From the sequence record PZ445435.1: a stretch of DNA of 64,000 nucleotides; one strand, given 5' to 3'. Numbering within the stretch: position 1 is the first letter of the stretch; every line of letters begins with the position of its first letter. The stretch is from a phage. Made by a program: the position numbers and the translations under genes. The notes beneath the pieces are model-generated. The model ran no database searches. It was not told the origin of the DNA and worked only from the letters and a program-made list of their open reading frames with translations. Below are positions 3,205-56,960 of the stretch, piece after piece.

Positions 3205-3453
3205 TTACTTCAGTGTTACCACAAAGTGACGAACTGCTTTTCGTGCGGCAGAAGCCAGAGGCTTAGCATATTTAAGTTCATCTTTTTCCTGAAGCTCAGC
3301 AGCTAATGCAGTTTGAGCAGGATTCAGATGTTTGAAATAACGCAGGATTTCAAGAGCTTCGGCTTCAACATCAATAGATGCGCCATAGTTTTCGTGACCA
3401 TTATTCCATGCGTTTCGTTGCAGTTCAAGAGCGTGTTGTAATTGTTTAATCAT
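3205..3453 (-). CDS. rIII: lysis inhibition accessory protein rIII
   Basis: 82-aa product matches recalled T4 RIII sequence and position next to gene 31. Confidence 0.85.
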   Translation of the reverse strand: MIKQLQHALELQRNAWNNGHENYGASIDVEAEALEILRYFKHLNPAQTALAAELQEKDELKYAKPLASAARKAVRHFVVTLK

Positions 3454-3571
3454 TTAAAAATTCTCGTTAGAGATTAAAACTCGGTAGTCACGTTCTTCTG
3501 AATTTCATCTTCTTTCGACAGATCTCTCAGTTGTAGACTACCACATAGAATTGAAACTCAATTCATATTAT

Positions 3572-3579
3572 TATTTATA
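3572..3579 (-). promoter_or_regulatory. candidate late promoter TATAAATA
   Basis: Exact TATAAATA on minus strand upstream of rIII. Confidence 0.35.
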
Positions 3580-3915
3580 TCACTTATAAAGACACGGAAT
3601 AGCTTTATAGTGACAGGTAACAAATTTTTGTTTAATTTCTTTTGGCTGCTTAAGACCTAGAGCTACAAAAGGATGCGGAACGTTTCGAATTTGACCAACT
3701 GGAAGAGAAGTCAAATCACCAACTTCGCAGAAACCTTCAGGAACATCAGGACCAACAGAGTGAACTACACACAGTTCAGGAACTTCACCTTGGACACGTT
3801 TACCAATAATAAGTCCTGATTCTGTAACTTCTTCATCACCGGCTTGCGCAGGTTCAGAAACTAAAATAACATATTCACCGACAGCACGAATTGGTAGCTG
3901 TTGTACTTCAGACAT
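3580..3915 (-). CDS. 31: co-chaperonin gp31 (GroES analogue for capsid folding)
   Basis: 111-aa product matches recalled T4 gp31. Confidence 0.9.
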
Positions 3916-3971
3916 CGTTTTTCCTTTTTGTTAACAGATGAATTAATAATAACAAATAATTCTTAAAGCAT

Positions 3972-4280
3972 TTATTTACCAATAAATTGAAGCAAATGCT
4001 CAACTTTCATGCCATTAACGGAAATCAATTTGTCAATAGAAAAACCTCGCCATGCACCGAGTTCAACATCAAATATCGGAATCATATCAGTAGATTCTTT
4101 CCGAGTAGATTCAGTCAATTTACCGGTTTGCATAGTTGGCATAAAGTCAGCATCACGGGTGCCTTTCATAGTACGAATAGTACCATCAGACTTTTCAAAA
4201 ACCACGTTTGAAATACCCATGGACAATTTAGTTTTCAAAATTTCACGAATTGCTACTTTCTGTTCAGTTGTCAGTTTCAT
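3972..4280 (-). CDS. hypothetical protein (102 aa)
   Basis: ORF track. Confidence 0.45.
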   Translation of the reverse strand: MKLTTEQKVAIREILKTKLSMGISNVVFEKSDGTIRTMKGTRDADFMPTMQTGKLTESTRKESTDMIPIFDVELGAWRGFSIDKLISVNGMKVEHLLQFIGK

Positions 4281-7620: not shown

Positions 7621-7847
7621 TTATTTTTCTCAACTAATGATTGAATATAATCATGCAGATCTTTAGATGCCTTACCCCACTTATTTTGATATTCATTTTT
7701 AAGATTAGCACGTGATTGAGCTAATAAAACATCATTAGTTGGAGGTAAAGATTCTAACCGCTGAATTTGGCGTCCATAAATCATTGCAGCCATCTCGGAT
7801 TCATAAATCAATCCTTTGAGATGTTCAAATTGATGCCATGAAATCAT
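7617..7847 (-). CDS. hypothetical protein (76 aa)
   Basis: ORF track. Confidence 0.4.
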
Positions 7848-8143
7848 TTACATTTATCCTCTTTTAACTCTTGACGATAATAACATATCATAGTTTTCTG
7901 GTCATGTACATATCGTTTTACATCATTAAGCCAAATACGAAATTCCTGAGAATCTTCAAATGGCATACCGACCCAAGCTTTACCATCGATAACTTTAACT
8001 TGCCAAGATAGTTTAGCTTCATCATATGACTTTATCTGCACAGGCCAATTAGGATGAACTGTTTCTTTCTTTACTTCTAGAGGCTTTGTCGAACAACCAA
8101 CTAGAAGACCAATAGATAATATTACTGCTGATAGTTTAATCAT
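7844..8143 (-). CDS. putative lipoprotein (99 aa)
   Basis: N-terminal signal with LLVGCS lipobox. Confidence 0.45.
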   Translation of the reverse strand: MIKLSAVILSIGLLVGCSTKPLEVKKETVHPNWPVQIKSYDEAKLSWQVKVIDGKAWVGMPFEDSQEFRIWLNDVKRYVHDQKTMICYYRQELKEDKCK

Positions 8144-17974: not shown

Positions 17975-18002
17975 TTTATTCTCCTCGGTAGTTGATAGGG
18001 TA

Positions 18003-18032
18003 ATAGTATCACACTACTACCCTTCTGTAAAC
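18003..18032 (-). promoter_or_regulatory. T4-type early promoter with conserved leader cassette
   Basis: GTTTACA ... TGATACTAT then leader CCCTATCAACTACCGAGGAG, also seen near 38284 and 38791. Confidence 0.55.
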
Positions 18033-35228: not shown

Positions 35229-35378
35229 TTACTGCATGACAGTTATCACAGTCATGATAACACGTTGAATTCCGAACGCAAGAAGACCTCCTGCTACGGC
35301 TGGAACAACGCCTAACCCTGCCAGTAAAACGCTACCAGATACTAATGCAGCGCTTGTAATACCAATGAATGGACTCAT
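35229..35378 (-). CDS. small hydrophobic membrane peptide (49 aa, not in track)
   Basis: Own translation; ATGA overlap with gene 52 stop. Confidence 0.35.
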   Translation of the reverse strand: MSPFIGITSAALVSGSVLLAGLGVVPAVAGGLLAFGIQRVIMTVITVMQ

Positions 35379-36703
35379 TTGATTTCCTCTAAATCTTTGG
35401 TGTATTCAGTAACTACATCAGTAGTTTTCCAATATTCGTTTTCTTCTTTTTTAGCTTTAGCTTCTTCAGCAAGTTTCTTTGCTTCGTCGGAAGTCATATG
35501 AAAAATATTCATACCAACTAGTTTATCAACATAAGAAGAATACATCTCAATTTTAGAAAGTTCTTCAGTCAGTTCTTTGCGAGTTTTACCCTGCACAACG
35601 ATTTCGCCTGAAATTACTTTCTTAATGAAATGTGCCTTGGCAAAGGCTAAACGAAAAGCTGATTCAGTTTCTTTGATTTTGTTATCAATTCGTTTTTGGA
35701 CATAAGTTTTACGAACTTCAACAAAGTCTTTAATTAAATCAACTACATTATCGTAAACTTGTAGCTTTCCTTTCTCATTAATAACGGTGATATTCTGGGA
35801 ACGACGCTCAATCAACCCAAAGTCTTTCATGATTTTTGCATGGCGTTCTTCTTCGTTATCGCTTAAGGAATATTCTTTACGGAATTTAACTTTGAAGCCA
35901 AAACCATGCTCACCGCAAGCATCATCCCACGTAATGAAGCCTTTATCTTCAAGCGGGTCTAAGATTTTACTCACATAAGTTTCACGATCATACTTATACG
36001 GAATCTCAGTGATATGCATTTGAGTTCGTGAAGTAAACTTGTATGTTCCACGAATTTCATATTGACCGTCAATTTCAACGACTTCACCGCGAAATTCTGG
36101 GAATTCTACCTTCGGTTTAGTTACTTTCTTTCCTTGAAGAGCTTGCAGTACAGCTTTCTTGACAGAAGAAACGCTATGAGGAAGAATGTAAGTTGCATAA
36201 CCAGTTGCAATACCGGAAACACCATTAAGAAGAACAGTAGGAATAATAGGCAAATAGAAAGCAGGCGGAATGTGTTCTTTATCTTGATGTACCGGAGCAT
36301 ATTCAGTATCTTTATATACATTATAGAAATTTTTACTTACACGAGCAAAAATATAACGACTTGCCGCTGCTTTTTGAACGGTACGAGAACCAAAGTTTCC
36401 TTGACCATCTAACAAAGGAAAGTTATTATTCCAAGTGTTAGCCATCAAAGCACCTGCGTCTTGCGCAGAGTTTTCACCATGATGATATCCAAGGTCTGCT
36501 ACACCGCCTGCAATAGAAGCGAGTTTGTGAAACTTATCTTTATTTCCTCGTGCCAAATCAAGAGCTCGAGCAATAACAAATCGTTGAACTGGCTTAAATC
36601 CATCAATCATATTTGGGATAGCACGATTTTCAACCGTGTACATAGCATAAGCCAATGCTTCATTATCAATGATACTTTTTAAATCGCGATTATTCAGTTG
36701 CAT
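35375..36703 (-). CDS. 52: DNA topoisomerase II medium subunit gp52
   Basis: 442 aa; GyrA-like N-terminal domain, size and synteny. Confidence 0.9.
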   Translation of the reverse strand: MQLNNRDLKSIIDNEALAYAMYTVENRAIPNMIDGFKPVQRFVIARALDLARGNKDKFHKLASIAGGVADLGYHHGENSAQDAGALMANTWNNNFPLLDGQGNFGSRTVQKAAASRYIFARVSKNFYNVYKDTEYAPVHQDKEHIPPAFYLPIIPTVLLNGVSGIATGYATYILPHSVSSVKKAVLQALQGKKVTKPKVEFPEFRGEVVEIDGQYEIRGTYKFTSRTQMHITEIPYKYDRETYVSKILDPLEDKGFITWDDACGEHGFGFKVKFRKEYSLSDNEEERHAKIMKDFGLIERRSQNITVINEKGKLQVYDNVVDLIKDFVEVRKTYVQKRIDNKIKETESAFRLAFAKAHFIKKVISGEIVVQGKTRKELTEELSKIEMYSSYVDKLVGMNIFHMTSDEAKKLAEEAKAKKEENEYWKTTDVVTEYTKDLEEIK

Positions 36704-36707
36704 AAAT

Positions 36708-36848
36708 TTACCATACTAGTGAATGTAGTGCCATAATAACATCAGAAATGAAAAGCACGACTTGAATTAATCCGAACATTATTCCGTAATATAATGCTAT
36801 CAATAAAATAGCAAGGGCTAATGAATAGCCCAAGATTTTCTTAATCAT
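36708..36848 (-). CDS. small membrane peptide (46 aa, not in track)
   Basis: Own translation; hydrophobic. Confidence 0.3.
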   Translation of the reverse strand: MIKKILGYSLALAILLIALYYGIMFGLIQVVLFISDVIMALHSLVW

Positions 36849-36999
36849 TAGTAGATAACAACACAAATGTTAAATATGCACACATACCCTGAGCTAAAGC
36901 TTGCGAAAACACACTGCTGGCATCAATACAGATAGTTAAAACACATGCTACTATCCAACAAATAAATGAAATAACTCCTAATAATTTTGCAATATTCAT
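36841..36999 (-). CDS. small membrane protein (52 aa), possible ac homologue
   Basis: Own translation; GAGGA SD; position downstream of stp as in T4. Confidence 0.35.
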   Translation of the reverse strand: MNIAKLLGVISFICWIVACVLTICIDASSVFSQALAQGMCAYLTFVLLSTND

Positions 37000-37006
37000 A
37001 TTTTCC

Positions 37007-37087
37007 TCACTGGTGTCCGAAGACGCCTTTGGTTTTAAGATTGTTACGATAGAACTGCATCACGTGTTCGTTGTGGAAATTACTCAT
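37007..37087 (-). CDS. stp: Stp peptide (26 aa, anti-restriction peptide that activates PrrC)
   Basis: Own translation [26 protein letters not shown], matches recalled T4 Stp. Confidence 0.7.
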
Positions 37088-37545
37088 TAATATGCCTGCA
37101 AAACAAATTTAAAGTTATCAGCCAACATACGGTTCATTTCTTCAAGTGTTTGATACTCAGAATGATGATTACGAGTAAACGCTAAAGCTAACTGTCCTTT
37201 TCCAAATCCCGTCGTCAGAGGTTTCATCTTAGAAGCAGGCAGATAAAATACTGTGTATACCATATTGTTATTTGCAATAGTACGTGCAAGCTGAGACCGA
37301 CGTTGACGAATATGACTTAGAACTGCACTGAATCCTTGCTTAGAACGCTGATTACCTACATAAAATCGTGCAGACACACATGGATTACTAAATGGACGAC
37401 CATCTAATTTACTTACTAAAAAGTAAAATCCAGGTTTAGATAAAATGTCTTTATGCGGAGTTCCCAAAAACCATTCACCGCCCTTGATTGTGCCAATAAC
37501 AGTAGCGCCTGCATTATTCAGATCAGTAACAGTCATGTATTTCAT
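37087..37545 (-). CDS. ndd: nucleoid disruption protein Ndd
   Basis: About 152 aa from internal [12 protein letters not shown]; matches recalled T4 Ndd. Confidence 0.8.
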
Positions 37546-37605
37546 ATTAATTTCCTCTAAATTATTTTCTACTCCAAGGCCGCATGAATACACGCGGCCA
37601 TTAAA

Positions 37606-37821
37606 TTAATCGTCGCAGTCGACGCTCAATTCCCAAAACTCTTCTACGGTATAAGTTTCAGTATCATTTTCAATACAGAAACGTTCATTACTGTTATTTG
37701 CTAAAGTAGCGTTAACTGTCATTTTCTCGCTGGTGCTCTTAAGAGGTGAAATACGAATTAACTGATCACCACTATCCAAGCAAAAAATTTCACCAACTTT
37801 TACATCTTTAAAGATTTTCAT
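37606..37821 (-). CDS. hypothetical protein (71 aa)
   Basis: ORF track. Confidence 0.4.
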   Translation of the reverse strand: MKIFKDVKVGEIFCLDSGDQLIRISPLKSTSEKMTVNATLANNSNERFCIENDTETYTVEEFWELSVDCDD

Positions 37822-37936
37822 AATTCACCTCAAGGAGTATAAAATCCAAATGCAGTTGTTGACCATCCCATCCAATATGGAAAATTTGCACCAATGTAAA
37901 ACATAAGAATATAAAACCAAATGTTTAGTAAATTCA

Positions 37937-38155
37937 TCATTTTACACCATTCCAAATTGTTTCAACTACGGATTTTAAACCATTCTGATGAATATCCATT
38001 CCGACTACCGCCATCAAATAGATTCCAACTACAACTGAACCTAAGGCAAAAATCAGCATGAAAATGAATAAAGCCGGAAAAATATTATCGAAAAACCATT
38101 CAATAAATGTAAAAGCACTGCGTTTACGCTTCATATTTTCCTCACATAAATCCAA
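37937..38155 (-). CDS. small membrane protein (72 aa)
   Basis: Two predicted TM helices. Confidence 0.4.
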   Translation of the reverse strand: MDLCEENMKRKRSAFTFIEWFFDNIFPALFIFMLIFALGSVVVGIYLMAVVGMDIHQNGLKSVVETIWNGVK

Positions 38156-38255
38156 AGTAAACGTTTAATACATCAATCATTAAAACGATTGGGAATATAC
38201 TCAAAACTACTAGTATTATAACTACATTCCATATAGCTTTAACAATCTTTTTCAT
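38142..38255 (-). CDS. small single-TM peptide (37 aa, internal start of track ORF)
   Basis: Start follows promoter and GGAGGA SD. Confidence 0.35.
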   Translation of the reverse strand: MKKIVKAIWNVVIILVVLSIFPIVLMIDVLNVYFGFM

Positions 38256-38283
38256 TTTCTGTTCCTCCGTAGTTGATAGGGTA

Positions 38284-38313
38284 ATAGTACCACGGAAGAA
38301 CAGTCTTGTAAAC
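38284..38313 (-). promoter_or_regulatory. T4-type early promoter with conserved leader cassette
   Basis: Near-identical to the 18003 and 38791 copies. Confidence 0.55.
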
Positions 38314-38498
38314 AACTTTTTTAAAAATATTCGTAATAAATGTGAATACCAACTACTACCGCTGAAACCTGTGCAACCCACCACGCACAAGCAATAAGTA
38401 CAGAATTCAAAATTTTCATAATAACCTCATCACAAAAGTAAATGTTAAACAAATTACTGGAATACTAATTAACCAAACAAAACACCACCATAATGAAC

Positions 38499-38762
38499 TC
38501 ATAGTTCAATCTCAGCGATTTTCATTTTATTACTATTAATAGCCTCTTTAAGACTATCTGAAAGAATTACATTCCAGTGGTCATTCATATGACCATTAAC
38601 TAAGCGTGTAATTTCTTCAGGAGTTGAAAAATAAGGCTGATCAGACTCCCAATGCGATAATCCTAAGCGAGTATAAATCATGCCTTCATCATCGCTAGAA
38701 TATTCAACTGACACAAACTCATCAGTTATTTTATGTTTAGCGTAATAAAATTTAAATTTCAT
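38499..38762 (-). CDS. hypothetical protein (87 aa)
   Basis: ORF track. Confidence 0.45.
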   Translation of the reverse strand: MKFKFYYAKHKITDEFVSVEYSSDDEGMIYTRLGLSHWESDQPYFSTPEEITRLVNGHMNDHWNVILSDSLKEAINSNKMKIAEIEL

Positions 38763-38790
38763 TTTCCGCTCCTCCGTAGTTGATAGGGTA

Positions 38791-38820
38791 ATAGTACCAC
38801 GGTCCTTGTGGTATGTAAAC
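38791..38820 (-). promoter_or_regulatory. T4-type early promoter with conserved leader cassette
   Basis: GTTTACA...TGGTACTAT then CCCTATCAACTACGGAGGAG. Confidence 0.55.
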
Positions 38821-38838
38821 CGTTTTGTGAAAAAATTT

Positions 38839-39396
38839 TTAAATGGAAAGATACCATCCGTTGTAGTTGCTTTTTCTTACAACCCTACGAAGGTCTTCTC
38901 TGTCACCGATGAACTTCGGAGTGTACTGGATGACACCTGGATGAATTTCTTTAGTGTTGAATATAATTATACAGTCAGCGACTTGATGATTTAGAATGGG
39001 CCCTAAATTTATTCCAGAACCATATGGATACTCTCCGCTGCATCCCGTTGTTACCGAAATCCAACGCGAGTCAGTTTGATGTGTTTTGACTTCTACACGA
39101 AGCCCGCAATATTTTGGATGCGCTAAAACATCCCATGCATACGTGTACGGATCATCGACATTTTCTTGGCCTTTATTGACATATCCGCTTAGCCAATCTG
39201 CCACAAAAAACTCTGCGTACACAGCGATACGGCATCTTTCGATAACTTCTGCTTTATCCTGGTTCGGGTTTTGTTTTAAAGAGTATCTTGCTGTATCAGC
39301 AATTTTGACCTTCATTTCACTAGTCAAGTCACTGTTCGATAGGGTAAATGTCGGAATCTGAAATAGTCTCTGTAAACCCGGATTCGTTTTCTGCAT
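38839..39396 (-). CDS. denB: probable endonuclease IV (DenB), by size and synteny
   Basis: 185 aa adjacent to rIIB. Confidence 0.55.
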   Translation of the reverse strand: MQKTNPGLQRLFQIPTFTLSNSDLTSEMKVKIADTARYSLKQNPNQDKAEVIERCRIAVYAEFFVADWLSGYVNKGQENVDDPYTYAWDVLAHPKYCGLRVEVKTHQTDSRWISVTTGCSGEYPYGSGINLGPILNHQVADCIIIFNTKEIHPGVIQYTPKFIGDREDLRRVVRKSNYNGWYLSI

Positions 39397-39443
39397 TTAA
39401 ACTTTCCTTTATGTCGGAATCATAATTTCTCTTAAAACAAAAG

Positions 39444-39462
39444 GGCCGAAGCCCTTATTTTA
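39444..39462 (-). terminator. hairpin AAGGGC-UUCG-GCCCUU followed by U-rich tract
   Basis: Perfect stem then UUGUUUU on minus strand. Confidence 0.45.
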
Positions 39463-39654
39463 TTTGAATTGTGCGATTCTTTTCTCTAGACACTCAGCAT
39501 AAGATTTCATTGAGATGAACTGTGAAAGCAGCAGTTCTTGCTCAACTGCACTAACCGTTAGAAACTTTGTGCTTTCTAAAAATTTGCTCAGTGCATTAAT
39601 TTTGAGCATTAATTGATCGTATTCTTCTTTTACTCGTGCTTGATAACCTAACAT
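39460..39654 (-). CDS. hypothetical protein (64 aa)
   Basis: ORF track. Confidence 0.4.
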   Translation of the reverse strand: MLGYQARVKEEYDQLMLKINALSKFLESTKFLTVSAVEQELLLSQFISMKSYAECLEKRIAQFK

Positions 39655-39667
39655 AATTTTCCTTAAT

Positions 39668-39690
39668 ATGATAAGGGCCGAAGCCCTTAT
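39668..39690 (-). promoter_or_regulatory. intercistronic UUCG stem-loop upstream of RBS
   Basis: UAAGGGC-UUCG-GCCCUUA perfect stem. Confidence 0.4.
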
Positions 39691-40625
39691 TTAAATTGTT
39701 CAGTAACGTCTTCAACTACTTCGTATTGGCAGGTACGCATTTTAGCATCGTTGTAATCAATCGGAATTGATACTACATCACGTGGATGTACTTTAACTTT
39801 TACAACTCGGCTGGTTGAACTGCCAAAGTGACGAATATAAGATTTAGAACACACATGCAGACCACGAGAACAAGTTTGTGTATCATCGTCATTTACACGA
39901 GTACGCGGCATTTTAACTACTTTACCAGGACTGTTATCAAAGGTGTTTGAGTGACAGTCAAAGTAGTTGTCACGAACTACTTTCCAAGCATAGAAGTAAC
40001 CATCTTCTGTAATTTCAATATCGTTTGCTACCAAGAAATCAAAGAGTCGAGATACCGCTTTCTGGCTTGGGTTTTCCAGCAGATTTTCCAAGAACGGAAA
40101 ATAAAATTCAAAGTTTTCACCTTTTTCCATCGAATCGAGAATACGATCAACTAAACCAGACCGTAATTCGATATTTTGATAGAACAAGCTTCCGCCTTCA
40201 ATTCGAACATCGCCGGAAATATATTTTTCAACAGCGCGACGAACATTAATTTTTTGTGCCGCTTCTTCCAACTTATCTGCTACAAGCAGATTAAGAATTT
40301 CCTGGAAGTTTGAATGAGTATTAGGAGTTGCGTTATAAGTTACACCGTCAACAGTAATTGAAATGAATTTTTTAGATGCATTCCAAATAATGTCAGATTT
40401 AGCAACTGGAGCAATAACTGCATCGCTATTAACTTTAATTGTAATATCACCGCTAATAGTAACTTTAGAGCGTTTAGCTTCTTCAGCATTTTTCAAAACA
40501 CGACGAATTGTGTCAACCGATACACCTTGCCAATCAGCCAATTCCTGTTGGGTGTAATTACCACTTGAATACAGCTTAACAATTTCAGCTTGTTCGTTTT
40601 TGGTCAGGCATTTAATATTGTACAT
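39687..40625 (-). CDS. rIIB: rIIB protein
   Basis: 312 aa; N-terminus and size match T4 rIIB. Confidence 0.9.
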   Translation of the reverse strand: MYNIKCLTKNEQAEIVKLYSSGNYTQQELADWQGVSVDTIRRVLKNAEEAKRSKVTISGDITIKVNSDAVIAPVAKSDIIWNASKKFISITVDGVTYNATPNTHSNFQEILNLLVADKLEEAAQKINVRRAVEKYISGDVRIEGGSLFYQNIELRSGLVDRILDSMEKGENFEFYFPFLENLLENPSQKAVSRLFDFLVANDIEITEDGYFYAWKVVRDNYFDCHSNTFDNSPGKVVKMPRTRVNDDDTQTCSRGLHVCSKSYIRHFGSSTSRVVKVKVHPRDVVSIPIDYNDAKMRTCQYEVVEDVTEQFK

Positions 40626-56759: not shown

Positions 56760-56960
56760 ATGGTACAAAAATTAATGGCACTTGTTAATGCCATAAAAGG
56801 TAATAAGAAACGTATAGCTTTTACTATTTCTGCTATGGTAGGAATTTTACTCTGGAACTTTATTTTATCACCTGTTGCAATTGCACATGGTATTAATATT
56901 CCAGTAGTTACTCTTGATACATTCGTAGATTTAGCATTTGCTTTAGTTGGGTTAATTTAA
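56760..56960 (+). CDS. small membrane protein (66 aa) on plus strand in the 56-61 gap
   Basis: Strong AAGGAGG SD 7 nt upstream of ATG; two hydrophobic segments. Confidence 0.35.
   Translation: MVQKLMALVNAIKGNKKRIAFTISAMVGILLWNFILSPVAIAHGINIPVVTLDTFVDLAFALVGLI

Follow-up and report, generated by a model that had tools for sequence, protein, structure and literature searches.

Small hydrophobic peptide genes between gene 52 and denB of a T4-like phage: gene content, conservation, and a probable role at the host inner membrane

Gene content of the block between gene 52 and denB

The window analyzed here is a stretch of 64,000 nt of phage DNA (sequence record PZ445435.1). By sequence identity, its region 36708-38502, read on the minus strand, is the T4 block 52.1-ac-stp-ndd-ndd.1 through ndd.6 in a Tequatrovirus genome, and as such it is already known and ordinary. 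The region is ~95% identical to T4, its gene order is that of the T4 annotation, and the T4 reference (AF158101) carries the block in the same order and on the same strand, among the same neighbors (gene 52, stp, ndd, ndd.1, denB, and rIIB). A 3.1-kb stretch matched 582 phage records, and in 484 of these the match covered 80% of its length or more. Every ORF of the block matched a PHROG family, and three of them (52.1, stp, and ndd.2a/3) also had Pfam matches above the cut-off. Seven ORFs of 28 to 65 aa are hydrophobic (52.1, ac, ndd.2, ndd.2a/3, ndd.4, ndd.5, and ndd.6), and the interval also holds the non-membrane genes stp (polar), ndd, ndd.1, and an 87-aa ORF. The first-pass annotation had described a cluster of at least six tiny hydrophobic ORFs at this place; the peptides and coordinates it quoted are present on the minus strand, and its identification of gene 52, Stp, and denB was right. 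Its size range of 28 to 72 codons holds at the lower end, whereas the upper figure belongs to a TTG-extended reading of a frame that has 65 aa from its ATG.

At the gene 52 side of the block, 52.1 (36708..36848, minus strand; 46 aa; phrog_3595, E 4.7e-24) scores 78.3 bits with DUF7396 (cut-off, 27) over residues 1-46 of 46. It has matches in 709 phage records and a pN/pS of 0.20, its first 8 nt double as the end of ac, and Erwinia phage COW86c has a homologue at the corresponding position. The ac gene (36841..36999, minus strand; 52 aa) lies between stp and 52.1, beside gene 52, with a Shine-Dalgarno (SD) site, GAGGAAA, 5 nt upstream of its ATG. Its product matches phrog_2501 (E 3.7e-25), its residues 1-51 covering all 50 profile positions, is 96% identical to T4 Ac, and has an extra threonine near the C terminus (LLSTND); two hydrophobic stretches are separated by D-A-S-S. 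We counted 459 near full-length matches to ac in phage records, with a pN/pS of 0.02, and the 52-aa variant recurs at 100% identity in 329 records, while phages Ac3 and JS98 carry divergent alleles of 31-40% identity. The variant with the inserted threonine has been described previously, and phage PP01, whose acriflavine phenotype is known, carries the extra residue (10.1101/2025.06.30.662393).

The next gene, stp (37007..37087, minus strand; 26 aa), begins on the stop codon of ndd (TAATG) and is a clear member of PF08133 (70.8 bits; cut-off, 25). Residues 1-24 equal those of T4 Stp and the polymorphic C terminus carries R25H, so that the N-terminal 18 residues, which are required for activity (PMC3014915), are identical to those of T4. 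It is followed by ndd (37087..37545, minus strand; 152 aa; phrog_1102, E 8.4e-65), which encodes the soluble nucleoid disruption protein and is 97% identical to T4 Ndd, and by ndd.1 (37606..37821, minus strand; 71 aa; phrog_2183, E 1.7e-37), whose acidic, soluble product has no hydrophobic window. Between these two genes lies a 9-bp RNA hairpin (37578..37599, minus strand): the fold of 37546-37615 has a free energy of -19.4 kcal/mol (z -3.5), a stability that none of 200 shuffles attained, and no U-tract follows the stem. Two other candidate structures, a UUCG hairpin in the 3' end of stp (z -0.5) and a hairpin at the ac/52.1 overlap (z -1.8), were no stabler than shuffles, and no Rfam family was found at 36000-40000.

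Beyond ndd.1, ndd.2 (37830..37940, minus strand; 36 aa; phrog_4135, E 6.2e-24; pN/pS 0.16) encodes an aromatic-rich hydrophobic peptide with a marginal membrane-helix score and shares an ATGA overlap with the gene upstream of it. That gene (37937..38134, minus strand; 65 aa from its ATG; phrog_2401) is a single frame of 65 codons in PZ445435.1, whereas in the T4 reference a 1-nt deletion after codon 2 splits it into ndd.3 and ndd.2a. Its product begins with a basic N terminus (MKRKRS), continues into one predicted membrane helix, and ends in a C-terminal tail that is also helical. It reaches 71.9 bits with DUF7248 (cut-off, 27), its residues 6-63 aligning to positions 4-57 of the 58 in the profile, which itself spans both T4 "genes." The 493 full-length matches in phage records include a T4 sequence (MT984581), the pN/pS is 0.08, and the homologue in Erwinia phage COW86c scores 81.5 bits. 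A sequence search of the PDB with Ndd.2a/3 returned nothing meaningful.

The following gene, ndd.4 (38142..38255, minus strand; 37 aa; phrog_3098, E 2.3e-21), is preceded by the SD sequence GGAGGA and starts with MKKIVK, and no other member of the set has so strong a membrane-helix window. Near full-length matches occur in 595 phage records from several host genera, with identities of 61-64% in Dhakavirus and 36% in the Erwinia phage. In PZ445435.1 the gene is without the upstream ATG that serves as its start in the T4 annotation. Three entries of the T4 reference are thus probably wrong: ndd.3 and ndd.2a would be one gene, and the start of ndd.4 would have been placed too far upstream. We also considered a resemblance between the C-terminal tail of Ndd.2a/3 (LKSVVETIWNGV) and the N terminus of Ndd.4 (MKKIVKAIWNVV), as aligned by MAFFT, and discarded it, as BLASTP gave no significant similarity.

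Of the remaining frames, ndd.5 (38321..38419, minus strand; 32 aa; phrog_5011, E 3.6e-26) shows 94-100% identity across all the Tequatrovirus loci compared (pN/pS 0.12), and ndd.6 (38416..38502, minus strand; 28 aa; phrog_8851, E 1.6e-17; pN/pS 0.07) has a Dhakavirus homologue of 40-44% identity and an ATGA overlap that couples its translation to the upstream ORF. This upstream ORF encodes a soluble 87-aa product (38499..38762, minus strand; phrog_2390, E 1.3e-46) and, at 0.215, exceeds the rest of the region in nucleotide diversity. Its alleles in relatives are 53-99% identical, and even in close relatives it is present, replaced, or deleted: T2 has a different gene at the site, and in T4 all but the last 8 codons of the 87-codon ORF found here between ndd.6 and denB are missing. 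The suggestion that this is a hyperplastic region is borne out by this variability and by the recognition of such regions in T4-type genomes, in which a swap of ndd.4/.5 in phage PST has also been reported (PMC4122927).

Conservation and expression signals of the small reading frames

Because the coding strand contains 36.6% T, short frames rich in leucine, isoleucine, phenylalanine, and valine might arise here as by-products of composition, and such spurious hydrophobic ORFs do exist elsewhere in the window, e.g., a 66-aa ORF within gene 52 (36121-36321), read in a different frame from that gene. However, the 1,821 nt examined contain six ATG-initiated ORFs of 25-90 aa with a membrane-like window (defined as a Kyte-Doolittle score of 1.6 or more over 19 residues), a number that none of 1,000 dinucleotide-preserving shuffles reached (mean, 1.1; standard deviation, 1.0; largest, 5; P<0.001), and the block is the densest spot of such small ORFs in the 64-kb window. 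Pooled over the seven hydrophobic ORFs, variable sites at the first, second, and third codon positions number 20, 15, and 70, and six of the seven have pN/pS values of 0.02-0.20, indicative of purifying selection. The exception is ndd.4, whose value of 1.31 within Tequatrovirus rests on only four variable sites. Moreover, the small ORFs follow one another along the DNA and overlap no larger gene, each has an SD site or a coupled start (see below), and, as the first-pass annotation had proposed to check, their frames are conserved, being intact in hundreds of phage genomes and across genera. The conservation data rule out a compositional artifact, the probability of which we regard as close to nil.

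We compared 12 GenBank loci. In Tequatrovirus, ndd is flanked by members of the 52.1, ndd.2a/3, and ndd.4 families; the Erwinia phage has all three in corresponding places, and in Dhakavirus 52.1 and ndd.4 flank the gene as well. The gene content around these three conserved genes varies freely among the loci compared. In another genus the peptide families are still recognizable at 30-36% identity, with the hydrophobic pattern kept. A scan of IMG/VR with Ndd yielded five loci, all from close relatives.

The genes of the block follow one another closely in the same orientation, at spacings of -8 to +8 nt, and each hydrophobic ORF is equipped with either a strong SD site or an ATGA/TAATG overlap with the preceding gene; a stop-SD-start unit, TGAGGAAAATATG, occurs twice. 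Two T4-type early promoters (GTTTAC, 15 nt, TGGTACTAT; scanned with the TG extension) were predicted on the minus strand, one before ndd.4 (38313-38284) and one before the 87-aa ORF, ndd.6, and ndd.5 (38820-38791). We counted 10 copies of the motif on the window's minus strand, where 0.02 would be expected. The second promoter is also present in T4, where it stands ahead of the 8-codon remnant. Among T4 transcripts, those of 52.1, ac, stp, ndd.2, and ndd.2a have been assigned to the early class, and the ndd.1 protein was detected early; at the protein level, none of the seven hydrophobic peptides was classified, with 52.1, ac, ndd.2, and ndd.2a given as NA (PMC9697503, including Table S2). Such non-detection would be expected of tiny hydrophobic peptides, and we infer that they are translated; our literature search found no ribosome-profiling data for T4.

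Predicted membrane helices, Ac, and Stp

As far as can be judged from simple hydropathy scales and, for 52.1 and ndd.2a/3, single-sequence AF2 models, the seven genes encode peptides of 28-65 residues, each made up almost wholly of a single hydrophobic alpha-helix. Six of the seven (52.1, ac, ndd.2a/3, ndd.4, ndd.5, and ndd.6) carry a stretch of about 19 hydrophobic residues for which membrane insertion is predicted, with Kyte-Doolittle windows of 2.2-3.1 (e.g., 2.50 for 52.1, 3.05 for ndd.4, 2.17 for ndd.5, and 2.33 for ndd.6) and summed insertion energies that are negative or near zero. The models show a single helix at residues 2-45 for 52.1 (pLDDT 94.4) and one helix at residues 6-64 for ndd.2a/3 (pLDDT 89.7), and lysine or arginine is found at the N terminus of five peptides. 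Two products have no such stretch: Ndd.2, with a window of 1.29 and a summed insertion free energy of +4.05, and Stp, which has no membrane-like window and a GRAVY of -0.98. Accordingly, the description of the cluster as almost entirely hydrophobic ORFs fits six helix-like peptides, less so the marginal ndd.2, and leaves aside three soluble genes in the same interval. Likewise, Stp was placed correctly, as a 26-aa product of 37007..37087, yet it is soluble and polar, unlike the neighboring hydrophobic peptides among which it had been counted.

The T4 counterparts of 52.1, ac, and ndd.2 through ndd.6 are 92-100% identical in amino acid sequence to the peptides of PZ445435.1, and the T4 reference (AF158101) already labels 52.1, ac, ndd.2, ndd.2a, and ndd.3 through ndd.6 as "predicted membrane proteins." More specific T4 labels such as "outer membrane" or "periplasmic" would seem unfit for these peptides, because they are predicted to be alpha-helical and hydrophobic and have no signal-peptide features.

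Among the seven peptides, a phenotype is known only for Ac. Deletion of ac confers resistance to acriflavine, expression of Ac sensitizes E. coli to acriflavine and ampicillin, the point mutation G38R alters the phenotype, and a block of AcrAB-TolC by Ac has been proposed (bioRxiv 10.1101/2025.06.30.662393). The expectation that such peptides target host membrane complexes therefore finds weak support in Ac alone. Similarly, the expectation that they target defense systems applies to Stp only, which acts on EcoprrI/PrrC, inhibiting type Ic restriction and triggering the PrrC nuclease (PMC3014915). The Stp encoded here would thus work differently from its hydrophobic neighbors: as a soluble peptide, it would bind the type Ic enzyme EcoprrI and inhibit restriction, the tRNA(Lys) nuclease PrrC being unleashed as a side effect.

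Possible roles and comparison with known systems

We favor the view, with a probability of about 0.85, that this is an early, non-essential T4-like block whose peptides insert in the inner membrane and modulate host membrane proteins. The peptides would most likely be accessory, single-helix modulators that act early: translational coupling on polycistronic early mRNAs would yield them during the first minutes after infection, they would enter the inner membrane of the host, for the most part with a cytoplasmic basic N terminus, and each would independently modulate a host membrane protein or membrane physiology. Ac may serve as the model, in that the infected cell accumulates acridines, possibly through the proposed block of AcrAB-TolC efflux. 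Such functions would be accessory and relevant only in particular hosts or conditions. In genome-wide T4 screens, all genes of the block were non-essential or "Not Fit" (by transposon mapping and by knock-down without a fitness effect), and saDelta9, a deletion that removes 52.1 through denB, leaves T4 viable with ~50% of the burst but without its stimulation of phospholipid synthesis (PMC6071114).

Alternatively, the peptides might serve mainly in counter-defense, each neutralizing a membrane-embedded or membrane-triggered host system. The company they keep would suit such a role, as the neighboring Stp acts on a restriction/abortive-infection system, rIIB, two genes away, counters RexAB, and, like many anti-defense genes, these are accessory genes in a hyperplastic region. 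Nevertheless, we consider it unlikely: T4 transposon libraries screened against RexAB, RnlAB, CBASS, DarTG1, and DarTG2 gave no reported match in the block and reported only rIIA/B, dmd, acb1, adfN, and tk.4, and the Bas37 homologues of 52.1, ac, stp, and ndd.x had q=1.0 in the two conditions considered. Moreover, the sole known peptide phenotype, that of Ac, is dye accumulation rather than defense, and whereas arms-race genes typically turn over fast, Ac is highly constant, with 329 records of at least 99% identity. It could also be that translation of these frames matters while the product is inert, so that they act as coupling or leader ORFs that feed ribosomes to ndd and gene 52 or protect the early mRNA. 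The very tight junctions and the reuse of the stop-SD-start unit agree with this, as does the T4 remnant of the 87-aa ORF, which still overlaps the ndd.6 start by ATGA; but with pN/pS well below 1, hydrophobic patterns retained in another genus, a phenotype changed by Ac G38R, and transposon insertions throughout the block that leave the essential gene 52 working, we find this very improbable.

The loss of phospholipid stimulation in saDelta9 invites yet another reading, in which the conserved peptides, rather than being independent effectors, work as one module, either reprogramming host membrane lipid synthesis (stimulation of phosphatidylglycerol) or tethering to the membrane the nucleoid that Ndd has disrupted. 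That 52.1, ndd.2a/3, and ndd.4 flank ndd in both Tequatrovirus and an Erwinia phage would fit, as would the T4 annotation, according to which Ndd binds host DNA to the membrane. However, saDelta9 also lacks ndd, denB, ndd.1, and stp, and for this reason its lipid phenotype can be assigned to no single peptide; moreover, the genes around the three conserved ones come and go. We thus regard a module as unlikely in general, and also in the specific form in which 52.1 (DUF7396), Ndd.2a/3 (DUF7248), and Ndd.4 (phrog_3098), possibly together with Ac, would underlie the phosphatidylglycerol phenotype of saDelta9 or anchor the Ndd-displaced nucleoid to the membrane.

As a discovery the block has little value, since its genes are annotated in the T4 reference and have homologues in hundreds of sequenced T-even phages. 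The selection statistics do confirm as genuine genes a set of very short frames, several of which many genome annotations skip. With their conservation far beyond T4, 52.1, Ndd.2a/3, and Ndd.4 would be the best candidates for mapping the lipid-synthesis phenotype of saDelta9.

Two comparisons with known systems bear on how such a block is built and how its products might act. The promoter and leader segment that precedes ndd.4 recurs as a direct repeat before the variable 87-aa ORF (46 nt, 96% identical), and the gene content of relatives differs exactly at these two points, as in the PeSL cassettes of T4-type phages (PMC4122927). Only the promoter half of such a cassette is seen here, and our scan found no terminator-like stem-loop directly upstream of either early promoter.

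For Ac, a sequence search of the PDB retrieved no relative, and no alignment was obtained with AcrZ. AcrZ is a bacterial small inner-membrane protein of ~50 aa that binds AcrB and consists of a single hydrophobic helix. The two are alike in size, in their helix, and in the proposed action on a large membrane complex, so that Ac may be regarded as an analog of AcrZ rather than a member of its family.

Gene content of the block and hydrophobicity of its products

The minus-strand block between gene 52 and denB is a known T4 gene block, so that the feature itself is not new. It comprises 52.1 (36708-36848, 46 aa), ac (36841-36999, 52 aa), stp (37007-37087, 26 aa), ndd (37087-37545, 152 aa), ndd.1 (37606-37821, 71 aa), ndd.2 (37830-37940, 36 aa), a single ORF covering ndd.2a and ndd.3 (37937-38134, 65 aa), ndd.4 (38142-38255, 37 aa), ndd.5 (38321-38419, 32 aa), and ndd.6 (38416-38502, 28 aa), followed by an 87-aa ORF that is not in T4 (38499-38762; phrog_2390) and by denB (38839-39396, 185 aa), all on the minus strand. 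Every ORF of the block matches a known PHROG family, and the Pfam assignments of 52.1 (DUF7396), the 65-aa ORF (DUF7248), and Stp (PF08133) all exceed the curated cut-offs. In a nucleotide comparison, 582 phage records, nearly all from T-even phages of Escherichia, Shigella, Yersinia, and Salmonella, matched the 3.1 kb around the block, 484 of them over at least 80% of this stretch with 90-99% identity; phage vB-Eco-KMB39 is the top match (97.7%).

The first-pass annotation had described a cluster of tiny hydrophobic membrane peptides including Stp. The peptides that it quoted and their positions are right, and seven ORFs are indeed hydrophobic. Stp, however, is polar (GRAVY -0.98) and was therefore misplaced under that title; Ndd, Ndd.1, and the 87-aa product are also soluble. 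Six of the seven hydrophobic ORFs reach 2.2-3.1 in a 19-residue Kyte-Doolittle window, and their summed membrane-insertion energy is below or close to zero (scale of Hessa et al. 2005); ndd.2, rich in aromatics, is marginal (1.29 and +4.05, respectively). AF2 models give one helix each for the 65-aa (pLDDT 90) and 46-aa (pLDDT 94) peptides. The labels “outer membrane” and “periplasmic,” carried over from the annotation of T4, do not suit such alpha-helical hydrophobic peptides.

Small hydrophobic ORFs also occur elsewhere in the window. On the opposite side of gene 52, just beyond the interval considered in the first-pass annotation, motA.1 (35229-35378; phrog_3487) is a 49-aa hydrophobic, Gly/Ala/Val-rich ORF that overlaps the gene 52 start and encodes a small predicted membrane peptide. 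Free-standing ORFs of 66 aa (56760-56960, plus strand) and 99 aa (7844-8143, minus strand) each combine a Shine-Dalgarno (SD) sequence with a hydrophobic stretch, the latter with a lipoprotein-like N terminus (LLVGCS).

Conserved, tightly coupled early genes

Since the coding strand is 37% T, caution about composition is justified, and gene 52 does contain a spurious 66-aa hydrophobic frame. Nevertheless, the view that the hydrophobic ORFs are composition artefacts is refuted. Six membrane-helix-like ATG ORFs lie within 1821 nt, well above chance: 1000 dinucleotide-preserving shuffles gave a mean of 1.1±1.0 and a maximum of 5, with 0/1000 reaching six, and the block is the densest spot for such ORFs in the 64-kb window. 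Across 13 Tequatrovirus loci the frames are unbroken, with 91-100% amino acid identity, and pN/pS is 0.20 for 52.1, 0.02 for ac, 0.16 for ndd.2, 0.08 for ndd.2a/3, 0.12 for ndd.5, and 0.07 for ndd.6, compared with 0.04 for denB and 0.12 for ndd; variable sites pooled over the seven ORFs fall 20/15/70 on codon positions 1/2/3. For ndd.4, pN/pS is 1.31, with only four variable sites, and its nucleotide diversity is the lowest of the region (0.014 versus 0.02-0.08 for its neighbors, 14 Tequatrovirus sequences); the gene is still recognized in Dhakavirus (61-64% identity) and in Erwinia phage COW86c (36%). Synonymous sites of ndd.4 (38142-38255) are low too (pS 0.015); its low diversity could reflect a recent sweep, constraint on the nucleotide sequence, or a recombination tract.

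Searching 50,697 phage records with tblastn, we found 52.1 in 709, ac in 462 (459 near full length), the 65-aa ORF in 494 (493 near full length), and ndd.4 in 595. The Erwinia phage carries members of DUF7396, DUF7248, and phrog_3098 around ndd, positioned as in the block, and the ORF that separates 52.1 from stp in JS98 is a divergent Ac (phrog_2501). Given that the frames are intact in Tequatrovirus and the families keep their positions in the Erwinia phage, the conservation in related phages on which the first-pass proposal depended is clearly present.

Small genes are absent from some deposited annotations. That of JS98 lists the divergent Ac as orf256 and omits a 57-aa membrane-type ORF between stp and ndd (phrog_5941; 3884-4057 of the locus) and a 53-aa ORF (phrog_9347; 3347-3508), and that of dhabil omits 52.1 and stp (3214-3354 and 3525-3596). 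The T2 record AP018813 has in-frame stops in ac (745-897 of the locus; GVI*FICW) and in ndd.2a/3 (1848-2042; ALG*VVVG); either pseudogenes of a laboratory strain or errors in sequencing could account for them.

The expression signals are those of tightly coupled early genes. A GAGG/GGAGG-type SD sequence lies 5-8 nt from the ATG of ac, ndd.2a/3, ndd.4, ndd.5, ndd.1, and ndd, while 52.1, stp, ndd.2, and ndd.6 start within or at the preceding gene's stop codon (overlaps of 8, 1, 4, and 4 nt, respectively); the stop-SD-start unit TGAGGAAAATATG is used twice. All gaps but three are 8 nt or shorter. In two of the three lie T4-type early promoters (GTTTAC, 15 nt, TGGTACTAT; 38313-38284 and 38820-38791, minus strand); the minus strand of the window contains 10 copies of their motif, GTTTAC-N15-TGGTAnTAT, where 0.02 would be expected. 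The third, between ndd.1 and ndd, holds a stable 9-bp hairpin (37578-37599; GGCCGCGUG UAUU CAUGCGGCC; the 70 nt containing it fold at -19.4 kcal/mol, z -3.5), which has no U-tract and is therefore not a standard terminator. In T4, transcripts from 52.1, ac, stp, ndd.2, and ndd.2a belong to the early class; Ndd and Ndd.1 were detected as proteins, and the products of those five genes are unclassified at the protein level (PMC9697503 Table S2), so that we infer their translation. No ribosome profiling study of T4 was found in the literature. That the small ORFs, with their overlapping starts, are merely coupling ORFs finds little or no support beside their pN/pS values; they are real, conserved genes whose peptides are essentially one hydrophobic helix.

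Possible functions

Ac is the only hydrophobic peptide of the block with a phenotype. Its sequence showed no similarity to that of AcrZ, an AcrB-binding peptide, nor to PDB chains in a sequence search. T4 without ac is acriflavine resistant, E. coli expressing Ac is more sensitive to acriflavine and ampicillin, and G38R abolishes this sensitization (bioRxiv 10.1101/2025.06.30.662393); the authors proposed that membrane-located Ac blocks AcrAB-TolC (restated in PMC13250531). The window encodes the common 52-aa variant with one extra Thr, described in the same preprint. Most likely, the peptides insert into the inner membrane, where each would modulate a membrane protein of the host, or membrane physiology, as proposed for Ac, to a benefit that would be visible only in some hosts or conditions. 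Lys/Arg at the N terminus of five peptides suggests that this end would stay cytoplasmic.

No block gene is required in genome-wide screens: 52.1, ac, stp, ndd, ndd.1, ndd.2, and ndd.2a scored “Not Fit” in CRISPRi-ART (PMC11879866 supplement), and 52.1, stp, ndd, and ndd.1-ndd.6 were non-essential in HIDEN-SEQ. The first-pass suggestion that such peptides often target host membrane complexes or defense systems is partly supported, Ac illustrating the membrane side. A role of the peptides as anti-defense factors has little or no support: none of the hits that HIDEN-SEQ reported under RexAB, RnlAB, CBASS, DarTG1, DarTG2, or minimal medium lies in the block, and the defense-related activity known here is that of polar Stp, whose first 18 residues bind EcoprrI, a type Ic enzyme, inhibiting restriction and unmasking the PrrC tRNA(Lys) nuclease (PMC3014915). 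The same grade applies to a single lipid or nucleoid module; the saDelta9 deletion, which is viable with about half the burst, abolishes the postinfection stimulation of phospholipid synthesis, but it removes the whole block from 52.1 through denB (PMC6071114).

Variable cassette and comparison with T4

Right behind an early promoter, the region of the 87-aa ORF (38499-38838) forms a variable cassette with the regional maximum of nucleotide diversity (0.215). Alleles in relatives share 53-99% identity (53-55% for that of fPS-2 and Pu-Krd-SF1), the gene at this place in T2 is unrelated, and all that is left in T4 is the final eight codons (MKIAEIEL), which still overlap the start of ndd.6; the junction to ndd.6, AAAATGAAAATCGCTGAGATTGAACTATGA, is common to all. 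A 46-nt repeat (promoter -10, leader, SD, and ATGAAA), 96% identical, precedes ndd.4 (38250-38295) and the 87-aa ORF (38757-38802), and its 30-nt core recurs at 17983-18012 with 2 mismatches. This is in line with the shuffling mediated by promoters that has been described in hyperplastic regions of T4 (PMC4122927); a scan found no stem-loop upstream of either block promoter.

In the T4 reference (AF158101), the 65-codon gene (3933-4129 of the locus) lacks 1 nt after codon 2 (ATGAA-CGT versus ATGAAGCGT), which splits it into an out-of-frame “ndd.3” and an internal-ATG “ndd.2a.” These are a single gene: the DUF7248 profile covers both halves, and the frame is unbroken in the later T4 record MT984581 and 493 others. 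The annotated T4 ndd.4 (MEEQKM...) is five codons longer, with an ATG overlapping the GGAGGA SD sequence (4250-4265); since this ATG is ACG in the window (38255-38275), the true product is probably the 37-aa peptide that begins with MKKI. Residues 1-24 of Stp are identical to those in T4. Overall, the block differs little from the T4 reference. Identity to T4 is ~95% over the 3.1 kb, gene order and strand are identical (52, 52.1, ac, stp, ndd, ndd.1, ndd.2, ndd.2a, ndd.3, ndd.4, ndd.5, ndd.6, denB, denB.1, rIIB), and the T4 annotation already calls the products of the hydrophobic genes predicted membrane proteins.
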